From positions 3,584,001-3,648,000 of the forward strand of contig OZ244621.1 of the NCBI GenBank assembly GCA_965218425.1: 64,000 bases of DNA, written 5' to 3'. Each line of letters begins with the position of its first letter. The stretch's first letter is position 1. The position numbers and the translations under genes are program-made. This DNA comes from an uncultured Candidatus Binatia bacterium. GTDB lineage: Bacteria; Desulfobacterota; Binatia; UBA9968; CAXXLF01. The notes beneath the pieces are model-generated. The model was not told where the DNA came from. It did not search any database and was given only the letters and a program-made list of their open reading frames with translations. Of the stretch, positions 10,479 through 23,675 are shown piece by piece.

Positions 10479-11612
10479 CTAGTTTTGTTTTTCCTCGTAT
10501 GACGTGGCATCGGAAGGCAATATTCTGATTCGATCTGGCGGCAACTGTGCGGAAATCTTTGCTCCGGTGTTAAGCGGGCTGCTACCTTCAACCTCTGTTT
10601 GACATCGCTCAGCCCCGATTTGTAACTCGCACTGGGTGCGATTGCCGATAAATATGGTTCGAAGAACTGTTGCGGGAAAGGTATTCGGGAGCTCATGTGA
10701 CGCTCCAGGGAATGAAACGATTTCCTCGGGACGGATGGTGAGCAAAACCTTATCGCCGGCAGAATACTGGCTATTCAAACCAGGCGCCGTGCACTCAACT
10801 TTTCCGAAGCTGCAGGTTACCACTAACGTACCCTTGGGTTGGTCCTTTTCAATAGTTCCCGAAATAAAATTAGTCTGACCGACGAATCCTGCCACGTAGG
10901 CGTTCGTTGGGTTCATGTATATACCTCGTGGCGCCTCCAGTTGCTGTATGATGCCGTTGCGCATGACCGCAATGAGGTCCGAAAGCACCAAGGCCTCTTC
11001 CTGGTCGTGGGTTACGTATAGAGTGGTCACACTGAGATCCTTGATAAGTCCCTGCAACTCGGTTCGCATGCTAACACGGAGCTTGGCGTCCAGGTTGCTG
11101 AGTGGCTCGTCCAAGAGAAGAACCGTTGGTTCGTATACAAGGGCGCGTGCCAGGGCCACCCTTTGCTGCTGGCCGCCACTTAAAAGGGGTGCGGGTCGGT
11201 CTGCCATGGAAGCCATCTGAACCCGTTCCAAGGCCTGCATGGTCCTTGGGCGCCATTCCTTCTTGGGAGCCTTGTTGGGGCCGTGCCTTAAGGGAAAGAC
11301 TACATTTTCAAATACCGACATGTGTGGCCAAATGGCGTAGGACTGGAATACCATACCGGTGCCCCGCTCATTGATAGGGACGTTGATCCCCCTCGGGGAG
11401 CTGAAGACAACATGATCCCCCAACGCGATCTCTCCTTCATTGGGTGTCTCGATACCGGCAATGCAACGCAATGTGGTGCTCTTGCCACATCCAGAAGGAC
11501 CCAGGAGGGTGAAAATCTGGCCTTTTTGCACGTCAAAGCTCACACCACAAACCGCTTCCACCGGTCCTTGATCCGAAATATAAGTTTTTCGTAGACCTTC
11601 AACTTTTAGCAT
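10479..11612 (-). CDS. ABC transporter ATP-binding protein (FbpC/PotA type, TOBE domain)
   Basis: GPSGCGKS, LSGGQQQR, LLLDEPLSNLD. Confidence 0.95.
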   Translation of the reverse strand: MLKVEGLRKTYISDQGPVEAVCGVSFDVQKGQIFTLLGPSGCGKSTTLRCIAGIETPNEGEIALGDHVVFSSPRGINVPINERGTGMVFQSYAIWPHMSVFENVVFPLRHGPNKAPKKEWRPRTMQALERVQMASMADRPAPLLSGGQQQRVALARALVYEPTVLLLDEPLSNLDAKLRVSMRTELQGLIKDLSVTTLYVTHDQEEALVLSDLIAVMRNGIIQQLEAPRGIYMNPTNAYVAGFVGQTNFISGTIEKDQPKGTLVVTCSFGKVECTAPGLNSQYSAGDKVLLTIRPEEIVSFPGASHELPNTFPATVLRTIFIGNRTQCELQIGAERCQTEVEGSSPLNTGAKISAQLPPDRIRILPSDATSYEEKQN

Positions 11613-11716: not shown

Positions 11717-13498
11717 TTAAAATCCACCTCGTTGGGTCAGTCGGCCTCCGGTAAACGCTAAGGCGACCAACAGCAACAGTCCCATAACAGACACCATAAC
11801 CACCGCAGCAGCTGAGGCTTCACCCAATTGGCCACTGTCCCATAGTCCCCAGACTGCAACCGATAGCACCATATTGTTGGTTTCAGTCAAAAATAGCGCC
11901 ATACTGACCTCCCGGAAGGTTAGCAGGGCCGTCCATAGACTTGCAAATACCAGGGAAGGTCTAACCAATGGCATAATAATGCTCCACAGGGTGGGAATAT
12001 TCCCAGCGCCACACACTCGGGCGGATTCCTCCAGCTCTGGAGTAACCTGCAAAAGGGAGGCGTTCGTAATTCGGGTCGTGTACGACAATCGATTAAGCAA
12101 GTTAGCCAATACGATTATGCCCACGGTTCCGCTAATAGGAATTGACGGGAACCAAACAGAGGCCAGGATCCCTAGCATGAATAAAGCAAATGCAAAGGCA
12201 AGACCAGGAAAGGCGTGGGGAAGCATGGCAATGGTATCCATGGTATTGCGGACTCGAAGACGGGTTCGTACAACAATCCAGGAAATCATTAAGCTGAAAA
12301 ATATGGCTAGGGCCGAAACGCTGAACAACAGCACCACGGTATTGCGCATCACGTCTTGCCCGCCAATAAACTCCATGAAGCTTCGGTAGTTCTCGAGGCT
12401 TAACTTCGATAGGGCTTTCACAGACGGCATTTGAATGATGGGCAAAAACGAAATCCAGAGCAGGACCAGCATGGGCAAGACCACTGCCAAAAGTAGGTAG
12501 AGAAGAATAAAACCCACGCCCAGATATTTAAATGGCCCTAATTCGATATCTCGGGGCCTGTAACCCTTCCCGGTAATGACCCCGTAGCGATGGGCCTTCG
12601 CCAGTACCTGATGATAGAAATACAATGCCACAAGACTCGGGGCGGCAATCATTGTGGCATAGACGCCTGCAGCGCCGTATTTGACATCCAATGAATCCGG
12701 CGTCGTGGGCCGCACTGCATAGAAAAGTTCACTGGACAGCACCGGCGCCTTTCCACCCGCGGCTCCAAGCATGGCGGGGACCTCAAATATAGAAATGGCC
12801 GTCATGAAGACGTAAATGGCCCCCCCGAGAATCCCAGGCCACATCAACGGGAGGCTGATTTTGACAAAGGTCCACCAGCGATTTGCTCCCGAAACACCGG
12901 CCACATCTTCCAAGGCTGGGTCAAGGGCCCGCATGGGACCAGAGATGAGAAAAAACATGGTCGGGGTCAGAATCAACCCCATGACCCAGGCGATACCATA
13001 AGGGTTATTTAGGTTAAGCGCCAAACTATCGATTCCAAGGAGGCCAGCCACGGCATTGTTGATGAGACCAATCCGCTCATTGACCAGCATGATCCAGCCC
13101 ATGGTTTTGACAAACCCGGGGATAATTACCACTACGGCGATCAACGTAATGAAGAGATTTCGAAATGGAATTGCGGTTCGATTGAGTAAGAACGCCAATG
13201 GACAGGCAAAGAATAGAGCAACCAGTGTAGCCCCGGACCCAACAATGATTGTATTGGGAATCACCTCAGTCAGGACATAAGGCCGGAATGCATTGGTCCA
13301 GTGGCTTAGTGTCAATCCTGGCTCGAAGGGGAGGCCAGGAACAAAGGTCATGTAAAAAACAAAGACCACCAGTGCCACAATGGCTGAAAGGACGATCCAA
13401 GACAGTGTCAGCGGCAGAGCATATGGGCCTAGCGTCGGGGTGAGGCGTTTCCTCGCGTGCTCGAGCCCTGTCCCTCTAGCGGTCTCTACACCCTCCAT
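11717..13498 (-). CDS. ABC transporter permease (fused two-domain FbpB/ThiP type)
   Basis: Many TM segments; two EAA-like loops (LEDVAGVSGA, LEESARVCGA). Confidence 0.92.
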   Translation of the reverse strand: MEGVETARGTGLEHARKRLTPTLGPYALPLTLSWIVLSAIVALVVFVFYMTFVPGLPFEPGLTLSHWTNAFRPYVLTEVIPNTIIVGSGATLVALFFACPLAFLLNRTAIPFRNLFITLIAVVVIIPGFVKTMGWIMLVNERIGLINNAVAGLLGIDSLALNLNNPYGIAWVMGLILTPTMFFLISGPMRALDPALEDVAGVSGANRWWTFVKISLPLMWPGILGGAIYVFMTAISIFEVPAMLGAAGGKAPVLSSELFYAVRPTTPDSLDVKYGAAGVYATMIAAPSLVALYFYHQVLAKAHRYGVITGKGYRPRDIELGPFKYLGVGFILLYLLLAVVLPMLVLLWISFLPIIQMPSVKALSKLSLENYRSFMEFIGGQDVMRNTVVLLFSVSALAIFFSLMISWIVVRTRLRVRNTMDTIAMLPHAFPGLAFAFALFMLGILASVWFPSIPISGTVGIIVLANLLNRLSYTTRITNASLLQVTPELEESARVCGAGNIPTLWSIIMPLVRPSLVFASLWTALLTFREVSMALFLTETNNMVLSVAVWGLWDSGQLGEASAAAVVMVSVMGLLLLVALAFTGGRLTQRGGF

Positions 13499-13534
13499 GG
13501 ATTTTCTTCAATGCGGACTGCTAGTCCTTTGTGT

Positions 13535-14083
13535 TCACGCCCTGTCATTCAAAAGCTGGCCGTTGTGAACTAATTTACCGGTGACGGGAATGGGGTTCTT
13601 GATGGTGTTTATGGTATGACATCCCTGCTCGATCCTGGCTAGCAATTGTTTAACCTTTTCCGCAGGGGCCGGGCTCCTAATATCAAACGTGTACATTACA
13701 CCCCGGCACGCCGGCGAGACATCCGCGATGCCCAGTTTCCCCCGGGTGTCGTAACTCATCCGTATATCCATCTTCGCATCGTCGATCTGAACATCCAGTT
13801 CTGACGCGTACCGCGTCAGTTGGCTGAACATTCAAAATCCCGTTGCAGCGACAAAGTACTGGAGGGGCGAGGGCGCCTTACCTCCTCCTCTCCTGGACTT
13901 CGCTTCGTCGCAGAGGATCGTATACTCTCCAACTCTCGCCTCCTTGAGTTGGTCTTCAACCAGACGAATCGCGGCCCGAGTCTGGATGGTATGACCTTCT
14001 GCGCCCGTCCTTGCCCGTTTTCGTTGCTCCTCAGTGGCATCTCGAAATTTGACCAGATCGATCTTTCCGGCCGGCTTACTCAT
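13535..14083 (-). CDS. OsmC/Ohr-family protein with in-frame UGA (probable selenocysteine, codon 84 of 182)
   Basis: ORFs 13832..14083 and 13535..13831 are in frame and joined by one TGA: PSPLQYFVAATGF-TGA-MFSQ, the position of the OsmC catalytic Cys; second Cys in EQGCH; downstream hairpin. Confidence 0.85.
13801..13819 (-). promoter_or_regulatory. Putative bacterial SECIS element
   Basis: Minus strand TGA-ATGTTCAGCCAA-CTGACGCG-GTA-CGCGTCAG: perfect 8-bp stem starting 12 nt after UGA with a G-initiated apical loop. Confidence 0.75.
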
Positions 14084-14100
14084 GATAAATGCCCTCCGCG

Positions 14101-15240
14101 CTAGCGGCGTTGCCTTATTTTCTTAGTAATGTCTCTCCTGTATGCCTTTCCTTCGTCCGTGCCGAACCATTTCAAGACTTCGAGGGACTCTGGACTGTCA
14201 TAAAAGGAAAGAAGTTTTGATCCGCTCTCCTTTAAGGTCTTCCTGGCCATTTTGTCATAATCACTTTGGCCCCAGTGAACATTGGTGTAGAAAGAGGGAG
14301 GTTGCCAAATCGCCTCTGCCTCTGGGGTTCCCATCCACATGCTAAAGAGAGTCCCCACCGCAGAATGACGAGCGCCCTTGGGAACAATGTAGAAGATCTG
14401 CGTTGTACCGGTGCCGTCCGCATACCAACGGTATCCTATTGGAGCCTCCGAATCCTTAGCCTTGGCGGAAAGATAGTGGTAGAAGTTCCCCGGGAAAAAT
14501 GCAAATTCTCCAAGGAGCAACCGGTTTTTTGCTTGCGTTGTGTGCATGACCCCGGCCGAATTCTTGCCGATCGTATCCACCGTCTTTAGCCATTTGTCTC
14601 TTTCGTAGACAAGGGTTCCTAACTCCCACTCGCTGGTAAAGATTCCCAATGCGTATTGTCCTTTATATTTTGGATTGGCCATATCGGCCCGACTCTTGGG
14701 CAGGTCTTTTTCGGAGATCAGTTTCGGGTTATAGATCATGACCTTATTTCGACCCGCAAAAGAAAAGGCATACCCAGTAAAAGGTGATGGACTCACCTCC
14801 TCTGGTTTCACCTTGCCAGAACGGACTAGAGGGTTGATCTCTGCAAGCAGAAGCTTCCAGTTGGCTATCTTCTGGGCATTTCCGGCATGCATCAATTCGA
14901 CAACATTATCGCCAGCGCCTGGGTATGTATCGTAGGGAGGTTTTCCGCCCGCCCTTAATGTAGCAAACAGCTGTGCGTAGGCTTTGGTTTGGCCTCCTTT
15001 CGCGATGTTGCTCTTGAGGTTATTGAGGCCGAACCGTTTTTTGAATGCCTTCATAAGTTTTGGGGTTACCCTGCCGGCCTGTCGGACCACCTGCGTGGTC
15101 AGGACGCCTTCTTTTTTCGCCTGAGCAATCAGCTCATCCAGGACCCTTTTGCCTTCGGTACTGGCAGCTACTGGCTGGGCCAGAGCAATGGTAATAACCA
15201 AACACAAAAAGACGCCAATACTTTTACCTAAGCTTTTCAT
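14101..15240 (-). CDS. ABC transporter extracellular solute-binding protein (Fe3+/thiamine-like)
   Basis: Signal peptide; AKKEG, YNPKLIS, NPKYKG, KGARHSA motifs. Confidence 0.85.
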   Translation of the reverse strand: MKSLGKSIGVFLCLVITIALAQPVAASTEGKRVLDELIAQAKKEGVLTTQVVRQAGRVTPKLMKAFKKRFGLNNLKSNIAKGGQTKAYAQLFATLRAGGKPPYDTYPGAGDNVVELMHAGNAQKIANWKLLLAEINPLVRSGKVKPEEVSPSPFTGYAFSFAGRNKVMIYNPKLISEKDLPKSRADMANPKYKGQYALGIFTSEWELGTLVYERDKWLKTVDTIGKNSAGVMHTTQAKNRLLLGEFAFFPGNFYHYLSAKAKDSEAPIGYRWYADGTGTTQIFYIVPKGARHSAVGTLFSMWMGTPEAEAIWQPPSFYTNVHWGQSDYDKMARKTLKESGSKLLSFYDSPESLEVLKWFGTDEGKAYRRDITKKIRQRR

Positions 15241-15306
15241 ACGGCACCCCCTTTTTCATGATTCGTTTAAGCGTATTAAGAGTAAAAATACGTTGTTCAG
15301 GCTGGC

Positions 15307-15335
15307 ACGCTAACAACGCTTGAAGTTCATGTCAA
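15307..15335 (-). promoter_or_regulatory. sigma70-type promoter for the SBP-OsmC-permease-ATPase operon
   Basis: TTGACA-17 nt-TAGCGT on minus strand. Confidence 0.55.
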
Positions 15336-15378
15336 GAGGCAAGAGAATCGACCGTGGTCTGAGGAGAGATAGGATCGC

Positions 15379-15408
15379 TTGACAACTTCCAATCTGGGTC
15401 TATATAGT
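15379..15408 (+). promoter_or_regulatory. sigma70-type promoter for aldolase 15483
   Basis: TTGACA-18 nt-TATAGT. Confidence 0.6.
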
Positions 15409-20695: not shown

Positions 20696-22492
20696 TTAGC
20701 GTGGAGCCCGTAAGCGGCCACCCGTAAGCGGCAACGAAAGTAAAAGAATCACCCCCACGGTTACCACCATAATGACCGCCCCCGCCGATGCGGCGCCGAT
20801 ATTGCCGGCGTCCCAGGCATGCCAGACTCCCACCGCCAACACCTGATTCCTGGGACCCGAAAGAAATAGGGCCACACTGACTTCCCGAAAGGTCGACATG
20901 GCCGTCCAGATTGCGGCGAAGATCAGGGACGGCCTAATTAGCGGAACAAGGATGTACCAAATGGTACTGGTGGTAGTGGCCCCACATACGTGAGCGGACT
21001 CTTCCAGCTCCTGTTGCACCTGAATGAACGCGGCATTGGTGATACGAGTGGAATAGGTGATCCGTTCCATAAGAAGAGCGATGGCAATAATCGCAATGGT
21101 TCCGTTTAAGTAGAACCATGGCAACGATCGTTCCAGGAGAAGGGCCACGATAAAAAGGGCGAAGGCAAAGGCCAAACCCGGTATGGCGTGGGGCAGCATG
21201 GCGATATTGTCCATGAGGTGACGAGAGCGTACGCGGGTGCGCACCACTACCCACGAGATGGTTACGCTGAAGAATAAGACGAGAATCGGTACGATTACGA
21301 TTAGTTTCACCGTGTTCCAAACGACGTGGGATCCCCCAATGATGGCCATGAAGTATTCCGGATCGTAGTTGTTCAAGCTGGCTTTGGATAGGGCAGCAAT
21401 AGACGGCATGTGGACGTAGGGGAATAGGGACATCCAGCCCAGCACCGTCATTGGCATAATGGCTGCGAGCATGATGTAAAGGATGACAAATCCTAAAGCG
21501 GGATACTTGAACTTTCTGAGACCATGGGCGTGGGGCCGGTAACCCTTTCCTGAAATTACGGCAAATCGATGAGACTTTTCCAATACCCGGTGGTAAAAGT
21601 ACAGCGCCACCAGAGACGGCCCGGCGATGACCACCCCGTACACACCGGCTGCACCGTAGCTCACCAGGGTTGCCTCACCCGTAGCCGGACGGACCGCATA
21701 AAATAGTTCAGTGGCCAGAACGGGCGATTGGCCTCCCGCCGCACCCAGCATGGCCGGGACCTCGAACATGGATAGGGCGGTCATGAAATGGTAAATCGAT
21801 CCCCCCAGAACGGCGGGCCAGACCAGAGGTAGACCGACCCTTGCAAAAGTCCACCACCGATTCGCCCCGGATACAGCGGCCGCCTCTTCCAGGGAGGGAT
21901 CCATGGAGCGCATGGGACCAGACAAAAGGAAAAACATCGAAGGCGTCAGGGACAAGCCCATGACCCATGCCATCCCATAAGGGTTTGCCAGGCTAAGGGG
22001 AATGGACTCCAAACCCAATAGGCCCGCCAGGGAGTTATTGATGAGACCGATCCGTGGGTTGATCAGGAGGATCCAACCCATTGCTTTCACAAATCCCGGG
22101 ATGAGCACCACTACGGCTAGAAGGGATGTAAAAAAATCTCGAAAGGGTACATCCGTGCGGTTAAGCAACCAGGACAATGGTCCGGCGAAAACCAGAGATA
22201 CCAAGACCGTGCCGATTCCGACAATTAATGTGTTGGGGAGTACCTTGTTGAAAACATAGGGCCGAGCCAAATTTGTCCAGTGCTCTAGGGTGAGGCCGGG
22301 CTCGGTGGGAAGGAAAGGAACAAAGCTCATGTACAGGGTGACAAGGGAGAGAGAGACAATGCCACCCAGCAAAATCCAAGATACAAAAACCGGCATGGTT
22401 TGAGATCCAACCATGCCGCCAAACACTTGCCAATAGGGAAGGGCTCGGCCGGCACCTCCCCCCTTCGTAACAGTTGTTTGCGTATCTGCCAC
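20696..22492 (-). CDS. ABC transporter permease (FbpB type), paralog of 11717..13498
   Basis: TM segments, LEEAAAVSGA and LEESAHVCGA; shared FEVPAMLGAAGG. Confidence 0.92.
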   Translation of the reverse strand: MADTQTTVTKGGGAGRALPYWQVFGGMVGSQTMPVFVSWILLGGIVSLSLVTLYMSFVPFLPTEPGLTLEHWTNLARPYVFNKVLPNTLIVGIGTVLVSLVFAGPLSWLLNRTDVPFRDFFTSLLAVVVLIPGFVKAMGWILLINPRIGLINNSLAGLLGLESIPLSLANPYGMAWVMGLSLTPSMFFLLSGPMRSMDPSLEEAAAVSGANRWWTFARVGLPLVWPAVLGGSIYHFMTALSMFEVPAMLGAAGGQSPVLATELFYAVRPATGEATLVSYGAAGVYGVVIAGPSLVALYFYHRVLEKSHRFAVISGKGYRPHAHGLRKFKYPALGFVILYIMLAAIMPMTVLGWMSLFPYVHMPSIAALSKASLNNYDPEYFMAIIGGSHVVWNTVKLIVIVPILVLFFSVTISWVVVRTRVRSRHLMDNIAMLPHAIPGLAFAFALFIVALLLERSLPWFYLNGTIAIIAIALLMERITYSTRITNAAFIQVQQELEESAHVCGATTTSTIWYILVPLIRPSLIFAAIWTAMSTFREVSVALFLSGPRNQVLAVGVWHAWDAGNIGAASAGAVIMVVTVGVILLLSLPLTGGRLRAPR

Positions 22493-22533
22493 TACTTTGG
22501 ATCTGTTTCTTTGCGCGGTAAATGCGGGCTCAG

Positions 22534-23675
22534 CTAGCGTCTCTGGGTCACGGCCGCTTTGATCTTGGAACGATATTTTCTCCCCTCGTCAGTGGCCCAC
22601 CATTTTAAGGTCGCCACCGTCTCAGGTGATTGTAGATAGGATACCAATCTGCTTCCGCTCTTTTTGATAGCGGCCTTAGAACGGTTGTCGATGTCGCTCT
22701 GTCCGAAAATCAGGTTCTCCTGTGGGCTTGCAGCCTGTAGAATCGTTTGCGCCTCAGGGGTGGTCATCCACAGAGACCAAAGCGTTGCGCCAGCGGGATG
22801 CCTTGAGCCTCTGGGAAGCAGATACATCATAGGTGAAAGGGGTGTGTAATCGGAGAACCAATGGAGGCCAACGGGGGCCTTAGGGTCACGCGTTTTCACT
22901 CCCCAATACTCGGCGCTGTTCATATAGGTGTAGCATATTCTTTCAACAGGATGCGGTTAAGGGCAGGTTGAAAACGCATGACTGCGGCAGCGTTTTTTCC
23001 GATACGATCCATGGTCTTGAGCCATTTGGATTTGTCTTTGTAAACTAAAATCCCCTGTTCGAAGATATCGGTCCACGGGGCGACGGTAAACTTGCCTTTG
23101 AACTTGGGGTCAGCAAGATCGATAATGCGCCTGGGGATGGTCTTCACGGAAGCAAGCTCCTTGTGGTAAACCATTACTTTGGTACGGGATCCCCAGATAA
23201 ACGCTTGACCCCCAACTACGGAAGGGCTCACTTGGTGGGCTTTAACTGTCCCTGAGGCCACCATGGGATTCACGGCGGCAAGCAGTGGCTTCCAGTTTTT
23301 TACCGGTGTCGCATAGCCTTTTTCCACCGTCACAATAGCGTCGTTGGCACTGCCGGTTAGGGAGTGAAACTGTGGTCTCCCGCCGGCTCTAAGGGTAATC
23401 AACATCTTGGCGAATTTGCCTGCCTGGTCACCCAATGCCACATTGATTTTGAGGTTTAGGCCGAATCTTTTGTTGAAGGCCTTCACAAGCTTGGGAACCC
23501 CGGGTCCCAACTGGGTGACGGTAGCCGTGTCGAGGGTGCCTTCCTTTTTTGCTTTCTCGATCAGGTCATTTAAGAGTTTTTTTCCTTCGGAATTGGCGGA
23601 CGCATGGATAATTCCAAATGATATAAAGGCAACTGTCGATACCGCGACCATGATAAGCTTCCCTGGGGCGTTCAT
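22534..23675 (-). pseudogene. ABC solute-binding protein split by a -1 nt frameshift near 22925-22935
   Basis: ORFs 22920..23675 and 22534..22923 together align with intact paralog 14101..15240; 8 nt instead of 9 between EYA and MNS. Confidence 0.75.

Follow-up and report, generated by a model that had tools for sequence, protein, structure and literature searches.

Hydroperoxide reductases of the OsmC/Ohr type catalyze the thiol-dependent reduction of organic hydroperoxides. They are homodimers with the active site at the interface, and they act on hydroperoxides by a cycle of two cysteine residues, which is taken here as the model for the residue pair Sec84/Cys155 discussed below. A bacterial SECIS element is a stem-loop directly 3' of the UGA codon with a G in its apical loop; these rules also underlie the bSECISearch model.

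OsmC-like selenoproteins were first reported in 2005 from Sargasso Sea data by Zhang, Fomenko and Gladyshev, with the motif UxxT and an assignment to COG1765 (YhfA) (accessible part of PMC1088965). They are also contained in later surveys and reviews (accessible parts of PMC1976440, PMC9312934 and PMC13188914).

The locus studied here lies in a 64,000-nt stretch of DNA (the window). On its minus strand, an OsmC-related gene (13535..14083; OsmC-Se in the following) starts with the ATG at 14083-14081, which is preceded by a GGAGGG ribosome-binding site at a distance of 8 nt (14092..14097), and comprises 182 codons plus a TGA stop (13537-13535). The respective translation from 14083 to 13535, MSKPAGK...PSPLQYFVAATGF-U-MFSQLTRYAS...EQGCH...DRA, shows exactly one internal TGA. 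This is codon 84 (13832..13834), predicted to be read as selenocysteine (Sec) within the motif U-M-F-S. Further downstream, the EQGCH motif provides Cys155 (codon 13619..13621), the presumed resolving cysteine. In the list of open reading frames, the gene is present as two halves, i.e., 13832..14083 (83 aa) and 13535..13831 (98 aa). An earlier reading made from the letters alone (the sequence-only reading) had joined these two ORFs into one frame with a single TGA at 13832-13834 and had noted that a second cysteine is kept in EQGCH. Both observations hold: the frame has 182 aa on the minus strand and the cysteine is C155 (13621-13619).

Judged from sequence comparison, OsmC-Se is a genuine selenoprotein gene. 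Our main reading, to which we assign a probability of about 0.85, is that it encodes a 182-residue OsmC selenoprotein of the NF041052 type, in which codon 84 would become Sec via SelB and tRNA-Sec, Sec84 and Cys155 would form a peroxidase-like redox cycle, and the protein would be co-expressed with an importer.

We compared the protein with curated families, reading U as C. The NCBIfam model NF041052 'OsmC-related (seleno)protein' (OsmC_like_Se) matches with 149.5 bits over model positions 2-144 of 144 (curated cut-off 95 bits), and a six-frame genome search with the same model recovers the gene with 141 bits and '1 TGA' inside. Since the match is above the cut-off, OsmC-Se belongs to a family that is already curated as selenoprotein. 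The Pfam model OsmC (PF02566) matches residues 66-168, i.e., across the TGA, with 50.8 bits and an E-value of 2.3e-13 (gathering cut-off 27.5 bits). The query protein used for Pfam, NCBIfam and the related genomes carried one surplus C-terminal C (the stop TGA taken as U), which visibly did not affect the results. OsmC-Se is thus a new member of a described family and not a hidden new family. To the extent that the sequence-only reading's 'hidden' protein was meant as a new family, it has to be given up, because NF041052 models it and OsmC-like selenoproteins have been published since 2005 (PMC1088965, in its accessible part).

Within the NF041052 family, OsmC-Se is alike in score and in carrying Sec/Cys at the conserved position, and the comparison with the family brought up no distinguishing feature. 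With the selenoprotein family of 2005 it shares the OsmC fold, the pattern U-x-x-(T/S), a SECIS element just downstream and the existence of Cys homologues (accessible part of PMC1088965). The motif itself differs, i.e., UxxT is given for the published OsmC-like selenoproteins (in the accessible parts of PMC1088965, PMC13188914 and PMC9312934) while the window gene shows UMFS (UxxS). The paralogues of OsmC-Se show the motifs ULLT and UMLT.

The catalytic residues were assessed in an alignment of 18 sequences (A2). The invariant positions here include U/C84 and C155 together with D59, P73, L74, Y76, F77 and Q88, while Cys58 (in CDE) is found in 16 of the 18. Among the orthologues, the N-terminus MSK..GKIDL is conserved as well. 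When compared with solved structures, the A2 profile matches 3cje (7.7e-18), 9wo1, 1lql and 1vla, and both Cys columns align in all four; the TGA falls on their first conserved Cys, which agrees with the earlier proposal that it sits at the catalytic-Cys position. In a further match, 2opl, the first Cys column is aligned and the second is without Cys. By its structure title, we take 1vla to be a 'hydroperoxide resistance protein OsmC'. Ohr structures are matched weakly (6mjn, E 0.0038; 9jx6, E 0.016), and we do not assign OsmC-Se to the Ohr subfamily. OsmC-Se falls into the same superfamily as the OsmC and Ohr organic hydroperoxide reductases (1vla, 6mjn), from which it differs by Sec in place of the first Cys, an N-terminal extension of about 40 residues, the extra conserved Cys58 and the weak match to Ohr.

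Next, we consider the codon at the Sec position among homologues. A homologue of OsmC-Se is present in 39 of 41 related genomes, the window's own genome (G000) included. The orthologues in G002, G003 and G023 are 71-78% identical and have one TGA each, while the copy in G001, which is from the same genus, reads frameshifted near codon 70 (L048:8188-8714, G001:C5). This G001 copy adjoins an XhoI-type restriction-modification pair and a group II intron reverse transcriptase. In a genus represented by 18 genomes (g5), 16 genomes have a form with 41-44% identity and one TGA, and G014 and G038 have only a more distant TGA form (about 30% identical). In addition, six loci hold Cys forms, which are uninterrupted 183-aa frames with 38-48% identity. 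At the Sec/Cys column, the genome loci show TGA in 18 cases and TGC/TGT in 6, and all 23 metagenome loci show TGA, one of them (L094) with an additional stop at codon 92. Thus, every aligned homologue has either TGA or a Cys codon at this column, as was anticipated for a Sec/Cys protein by the sequence-only reading. When 201 genomes were sampled evenly across the phylum, NF041052 was above its cut-off in two (the window's genome and G076), both with TGA, and a match with E <= 1e-20 was found in nine. The NF041052-type family is frequent only within the window's own order.

The TGA is followed by 12 nt (atgttcagccaa), which lead to ctgacgcg (13819-13812), the loop gta (13811-13809) and cgcgtcag (13808-13801). 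This perfect 8-bp stem with a GTA loop, 12 nt past the UGA, had been spotted before and is confirmed at 13819-13801. According to the fold prediction, it is the top of a longer SECIS-type stem-loop on the minus strand (about 13784..13839), whose lower stem includes the UGA and whose upper stem pairs 13819-13812 with 13808-13801 around the apical loop GUA (13811-13809). The MFE of the stem-loop 13839-13784 is -26.5 kcal/mol, with a z-score of -3.77 and 0/200 shuffled sequences being as stable. Perfect 8-bp stems with loops of 3-8 nt are rare, i.e., there are eight in the whole 64-kb window, the OsmC-Se hairpin among them. Its GUA loop begins 20 nt past the UGA, in agreement with the SECIS rules for loop and distance. 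A scan of 13600-14000 against Rfam with E-values up to 10 gave no SECIS family and four chance-level matches to unrelated families.

The hairpin was then compared between Sec and Cys forms based on local folds. In 18/18 TGA forms, the apical loop begins 19-20 nt past the UGA with a G within the first two loop bases; as the TGA forms are relatives, 10 of the 18 being from one genus with near-identical hairpins, these counts overstate independence. The stronger point for a SECIS element is therefore that the TGA forms show separate stem types, i.e., at least four distinct stem sequences (the orthologue type, the type of the 18-genome genus and those of the paralogues L021 and L024). For the Cys forms (n=6), the loop starts are scattered over 12-28 nt without a hairpin at a fixed place, and the mean energy of the local fold is -7.5 kcal/mol compared to -12.1 kcal/mol for the TGA forms. 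In the Cys form L031, nearly the same peptide (QLTRFAS) is encoded by other codons, and the hairpin is missing. Among 11 orthologues, there is almost no variation between the TGA and the end of the upper stem, even at synonymous sites. The locus offers a clean natural comparison for the co-evolution of Sec and its RNA signal, i.e., Sec forms with the hairpin versus Cys forms of the same peptide without it. Pfam, NF041052, the fold, the hairpins of all TGA forms and the structure alignment jointly bear out the earlier idea of an OsmC-family Sec/Cys protein with a SECIS-type hairpin.

Decoding of the UGA as Sec would also depend on the respective machinery, for which a search of the genome had been proposed. 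The genome is one contig of 4.46 Mb and contains selA (592 bits), selB (413 bits), selD (378 bits; G000:C1:1307623-1308549) and tRNA-Sec (76.5 bits; anticodon tca according to ARAGORN), all above their cut-offs and all within one region, 1300977-1311984. Within the 64-kb window, ARAGORN reports no tRNA, the tRNA-Sec being located elsewhere in the genome. One in-frame TGA is also present in selD, which probably makes SelD a selenoprotein as well. Five NF041052-like loci are found in the genome, two of them above the cut-off and four with one in-frame TGA; the second member above the cut-off scores 167.8 bits and the three other loci are weaker. The four OsmC_like_Se-type loci beside OsmC-Se are G000:C1:1339419-1339841, 4131050-4131463, 4139948-4140220 and 1399475-1399885, and 3/4 show an in-frame TGA with a hairpin of their own. 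At the locus starting at 4139948, model positions 4-96 alone are matched and the C-terminal part is garbled, which may reflect decay.

Given these data, we can weigh whether the gene is broken, whether two separate small genes meet at the TGA, or whether the TGA results from a sequencing error. An ATG follows directly after the TGA and the second half is callable as its own ORF; furthermore, two relatives look damaged, namely the frameshifted copy in G001 and L094 with its extra stop. The split is also found in public collections, where the two halves are held as separate short proteins (83 aa and 98 aa), as the sequence-only reading had expected from gene callers. The 83-aa half belongs to a 90%-identity cluster with 41 members; 14 of the 15 listed members have 83 aa and one has 79 aa, and one listed member is named 'hypothetical protein'. 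Against all three variants, the OsmC domain as matched by Pfam (66-168) spans the TGA, the Cys forms are single 183-aa frames, and all TGA-form relatives, even at 22-29% identity, retain the TGA together with a hairpin at the corresponding place. With regard to a sequencing error, for which TGC or TGT in the reads had been named as the telling sign, contigs from three runs of three studies (X1, X2, X3), one or more of which may be the source of the genome, cover 13000-15400 and are identical at the TGA. The sole difference of the X3 contig across this range is at position 14817. The comparative data contradict a broken gene, two genes or an error at the TGA; we regard these variants as very improbable, and keep the reading as one selenoprotein gene.

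A genome-wide reading of TGA as another residue was considered separately and rejected, because a TGA also serves as the stop of the gene itself, and the ends of most neighbouring genes are regular with translation table 11.

For annotation, the consequence is that public collections list OsmC-Se and some 40 close relatives as proteins truncated to 83 aa, with the 98-aa second half as a separate entry in one case. An organism with several selenoenzymes is thereby credited with one too few. We see the main importance of the finding here, in annotation, and consider the placement in an importer operon as minor.

With regard to function, membership in the family makes a Sec/Cys hydroperoxide reductase most likely. 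In the proposed mechanism, the UGA at codon 84 would be decoded as Sec by SelB and tRNA-Sec, steered by the stem-loop just downstream. Relative to OsmC-type hydroperoxide reductases, Sec84 corresponds in position to the first (peroxidatic) Cys, and Cys155 to the second (resolving) one. Sec84 would attack the hydroperoxide and turn into a selenenic acid, which would then form a selenenylsulfide with Cys155, and a cellular thiol reductant would recycle the pair. Since the extra Cys58 is conserved (16/18 in A2), the redox chemistry may differ from that of classical OsmC.

We next turn to the genomic surroundings. The sequence-only reading had placed OsmC-Se between the binding protein and the permease of an ABC importer, which is confirmed; all of these genes lie on the minus strand. 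The gene of the ABC solute-binding protein (14101-15240; Pfam SBP_bac_8 and SBP_bac_6) has its stop 17 nt upstream of the OsmC-Se start, and the fused double ABC permease gene (11717-13498; Pfam BPD_transp_1 in two stretches) starts 36 nt downstream of the OsmC-Se stop. The ABC ATPase gene is found at 10479-11612 on the same strand (Pfam ABC_tran and TOBE_2). Based on NCBIfam, no family is matched by the binding protein, while the matches of the permease (nearest model PhnU2-like) and of the ATPase are all below cut-off (PhnU2, PotA and similar models). The RNA run X9 covers 14447-14714, which is within the binding-protein gene. A consensus scan gave no minus-strand terminator-like site between 13498 and 14101; since the promoter and terminator scans did not exceed what shuffled sequences give, nothing beyond this absence between the three genes is taken from them. 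The gaps of 17 and 36 nt together with the lack of a terminator-like site suggest that OsmC-Se is likely co-transcribed with the importer genes.

This arrangement had led the sequence-only reading to propose that OsmC-Se may process the imported substrate. In a wider form, OsmC-Se would be a pathway-specific accessory enzyme acting on the imported compound or on the product of a neighbouring catabolic enzyme (class II aldolases, TenA/PQQC-like, 'iron-containing redox enzyme', Zn-ADH). The tight packing of the gene inside the operon fits this proposal, as does the metagenome locus L080, which has the same order of binding protein, OsmC-Se, permease and ATPase (87%, 87%, 92% and 86% identical, respectively). 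Furthermore, a class II aldolase gene overlaps the end of a 54%-identical homologue in L098 and L099. The locus L081 (1-5770; OsmC 85% identical) speaks to both sides. Upstream of OsmC-Se, it retains the TenA / aldolase / 'iron-containing redox enzyme' (HO2-like) genes as in the window; OsmC-Se is then followed directly by the ABC ATPase and a BNR-repeat gene, while binding protein and permease are absent. In L081, the transporter seems to be decaying, whereas the selenoprotein has been kept.

A direct counterexample is provided by G001. Its syntenic locus is preserved from BNR to TenA (BNR 84%, NMT1 90%, ATPase 88%, permease 88%, binding protein 81%, followed by aldolase, ADH and TenA), but has a 267-nt spacer between binding protein and permease instead of the OsmC gene. 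There, tblastn finds no OsmC match, and this result is the one the absence is based on; a pairwise DNA alignment of spacer and OsmC gene gives no meaningful similarity. The G001 copy is the frameshifted one located elsewhere. Likewise, the OsmC gene is absent from five paralogous binding-protein/permease pairs, one of which is in the window (20696-23675). Importer genes are near none of the four genome orthologues (0/4; G001, G002, G003, G023), and 21/23 metagenome loci have neither binding protein nor permease on the available contig, many contigs being short. Given the G001 operon, the five pairs, L081 and the 69-80% identical orthologues in unrelated redox contexts, the step from operon position to substrate processing is not upheld, and we consider a pathway-specific accessory enzyme unlikely.

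The placement looks like a recent, local and lineage-specific relocation that survives the loss of transporter parts, and this survival argues against the handling of an imported compound. The arrangement is found in a narrow lineage only, and OsmC-Se in the importer operon is probably a co-expressed redox or detoxifying enzyme and not a part of the transporter.

The surrounding part of the window (3281-24778) has the appearance of a catabolic island that is partly duplicated, with pairs of hydantoinase-B, NMT1/THI5-like, BNR/Sortilin-like and class II aldolase genes, a pair of HO2-like 'iron-containing redox enzyme' genes (53% identical to each other), a TenA/PQQC-like gene, a Zn-ADH and two ABC importers, the permeases of which are 61% identical. 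The paralogous binding-protein gene of the second of these importers (minus strand, 22534-23675) is split into two ORFs in different frames (query residues 1-247 and 252-379). In another paralogue (G000:C1:3901400-3902469), the break falls almost at the same point (residues 18-231 and 236-379). A frameshift, an assembly error or something recurrent may be behind this.

Finally, we compared the neighbourhoods of OsmC-Se in other genomes and in metagenome contigs. The orthologue in G002 comes after LigB-LigA, an aldo-keto reductase and GST, and those in G023 and L086 after a GntR regulator and a nitroreductase. In L094 the gene adjoins an AhpC/TSA gene, and in L091 its end is overlapped by a methionine-synthase-like gene. 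In general, the NF041052-type family accompanies oxidoreductases. In the two loci with the 54% identical homologue (L098:964-2270 and L099:1462-2768), the overlap with the class II aldolase gene amounts to 4 nt. After the G023 orthologue (L047:3667-5412), an AhpC/TSA-like gene with a TGA (WUPYC) and a DUF3179 gene with a TGA (WUPLC) follow; given these in-frame TGAs, this is a cluster of three likely selenoprotein genes.

The most repeated context is an XDH-family molybdenum-hydroxylase large-subunit gene whose end is no more than about 20 nt away from the start of the OsmC gene. It is directly upstream in 6/6 Cys-form loci (L049, L050, L051, L056, L060, L061) and in three Sec-form loci (L082, L083, L084), with 63-92% identity of the large-subunit genes among the loci. 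In G002, the same large-subunit gene is located about 5.8 kb from OsmC-Se. The variety of neighbourhoods and, in particular, this repeated coupling provide a testable lead to the substrate of an OsmC-like selenoprotein.

Two readings build on this coupling. In the first, the protein would be a sulfur or selenium carrier or a reductase for the molybdenum hydroxylase instead of a peroxidase, with the partner having been separated in the window's genome. The adjacency and the G002 locus are consistent with it, but adjacency equally fits the removal of peroxide made by the hydroxylase. Moreover, a comparison of coordinates places none of the 31 large-subunit paralogues listed for the window's genome (4.46 Mb) beside any of its five OsmC-like loci. 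A paper linking OsmC with molybdenum hydroxylases was not found in the literature covered; both terms occur in one review, in which the one OsmC passage considered is an unrelated table row. We therefore rate a carrier or hydroxylase reductase as highly unlikely, i.e., below the accessory enzyme of the importer operon.

In the second, the Sec/Cys OsmC subfamily would be a dedicated partner of oxidative catabolic enzymes, not a general stress protein, and would have been recruited to the importer operon in the window's lineage. This is doubtful, though of somewhat better standing than the accessory enzyme. If true, the subfamily could clear peroxide made by the hydroxylase or act on the Mo=S/Se ligand, and it would be kept in the importer operon of a catabolic island even where the transporter has decayed, as in L081. 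The reading as an NF041052-type selenoprotein with a Sec84/Cys155 cycle remains the one we prefer.

Among the 31 large-subunit paralogues, one (1994740-1996977) shows an in-frame TGA, and two show an in-frame TAG or TAA.
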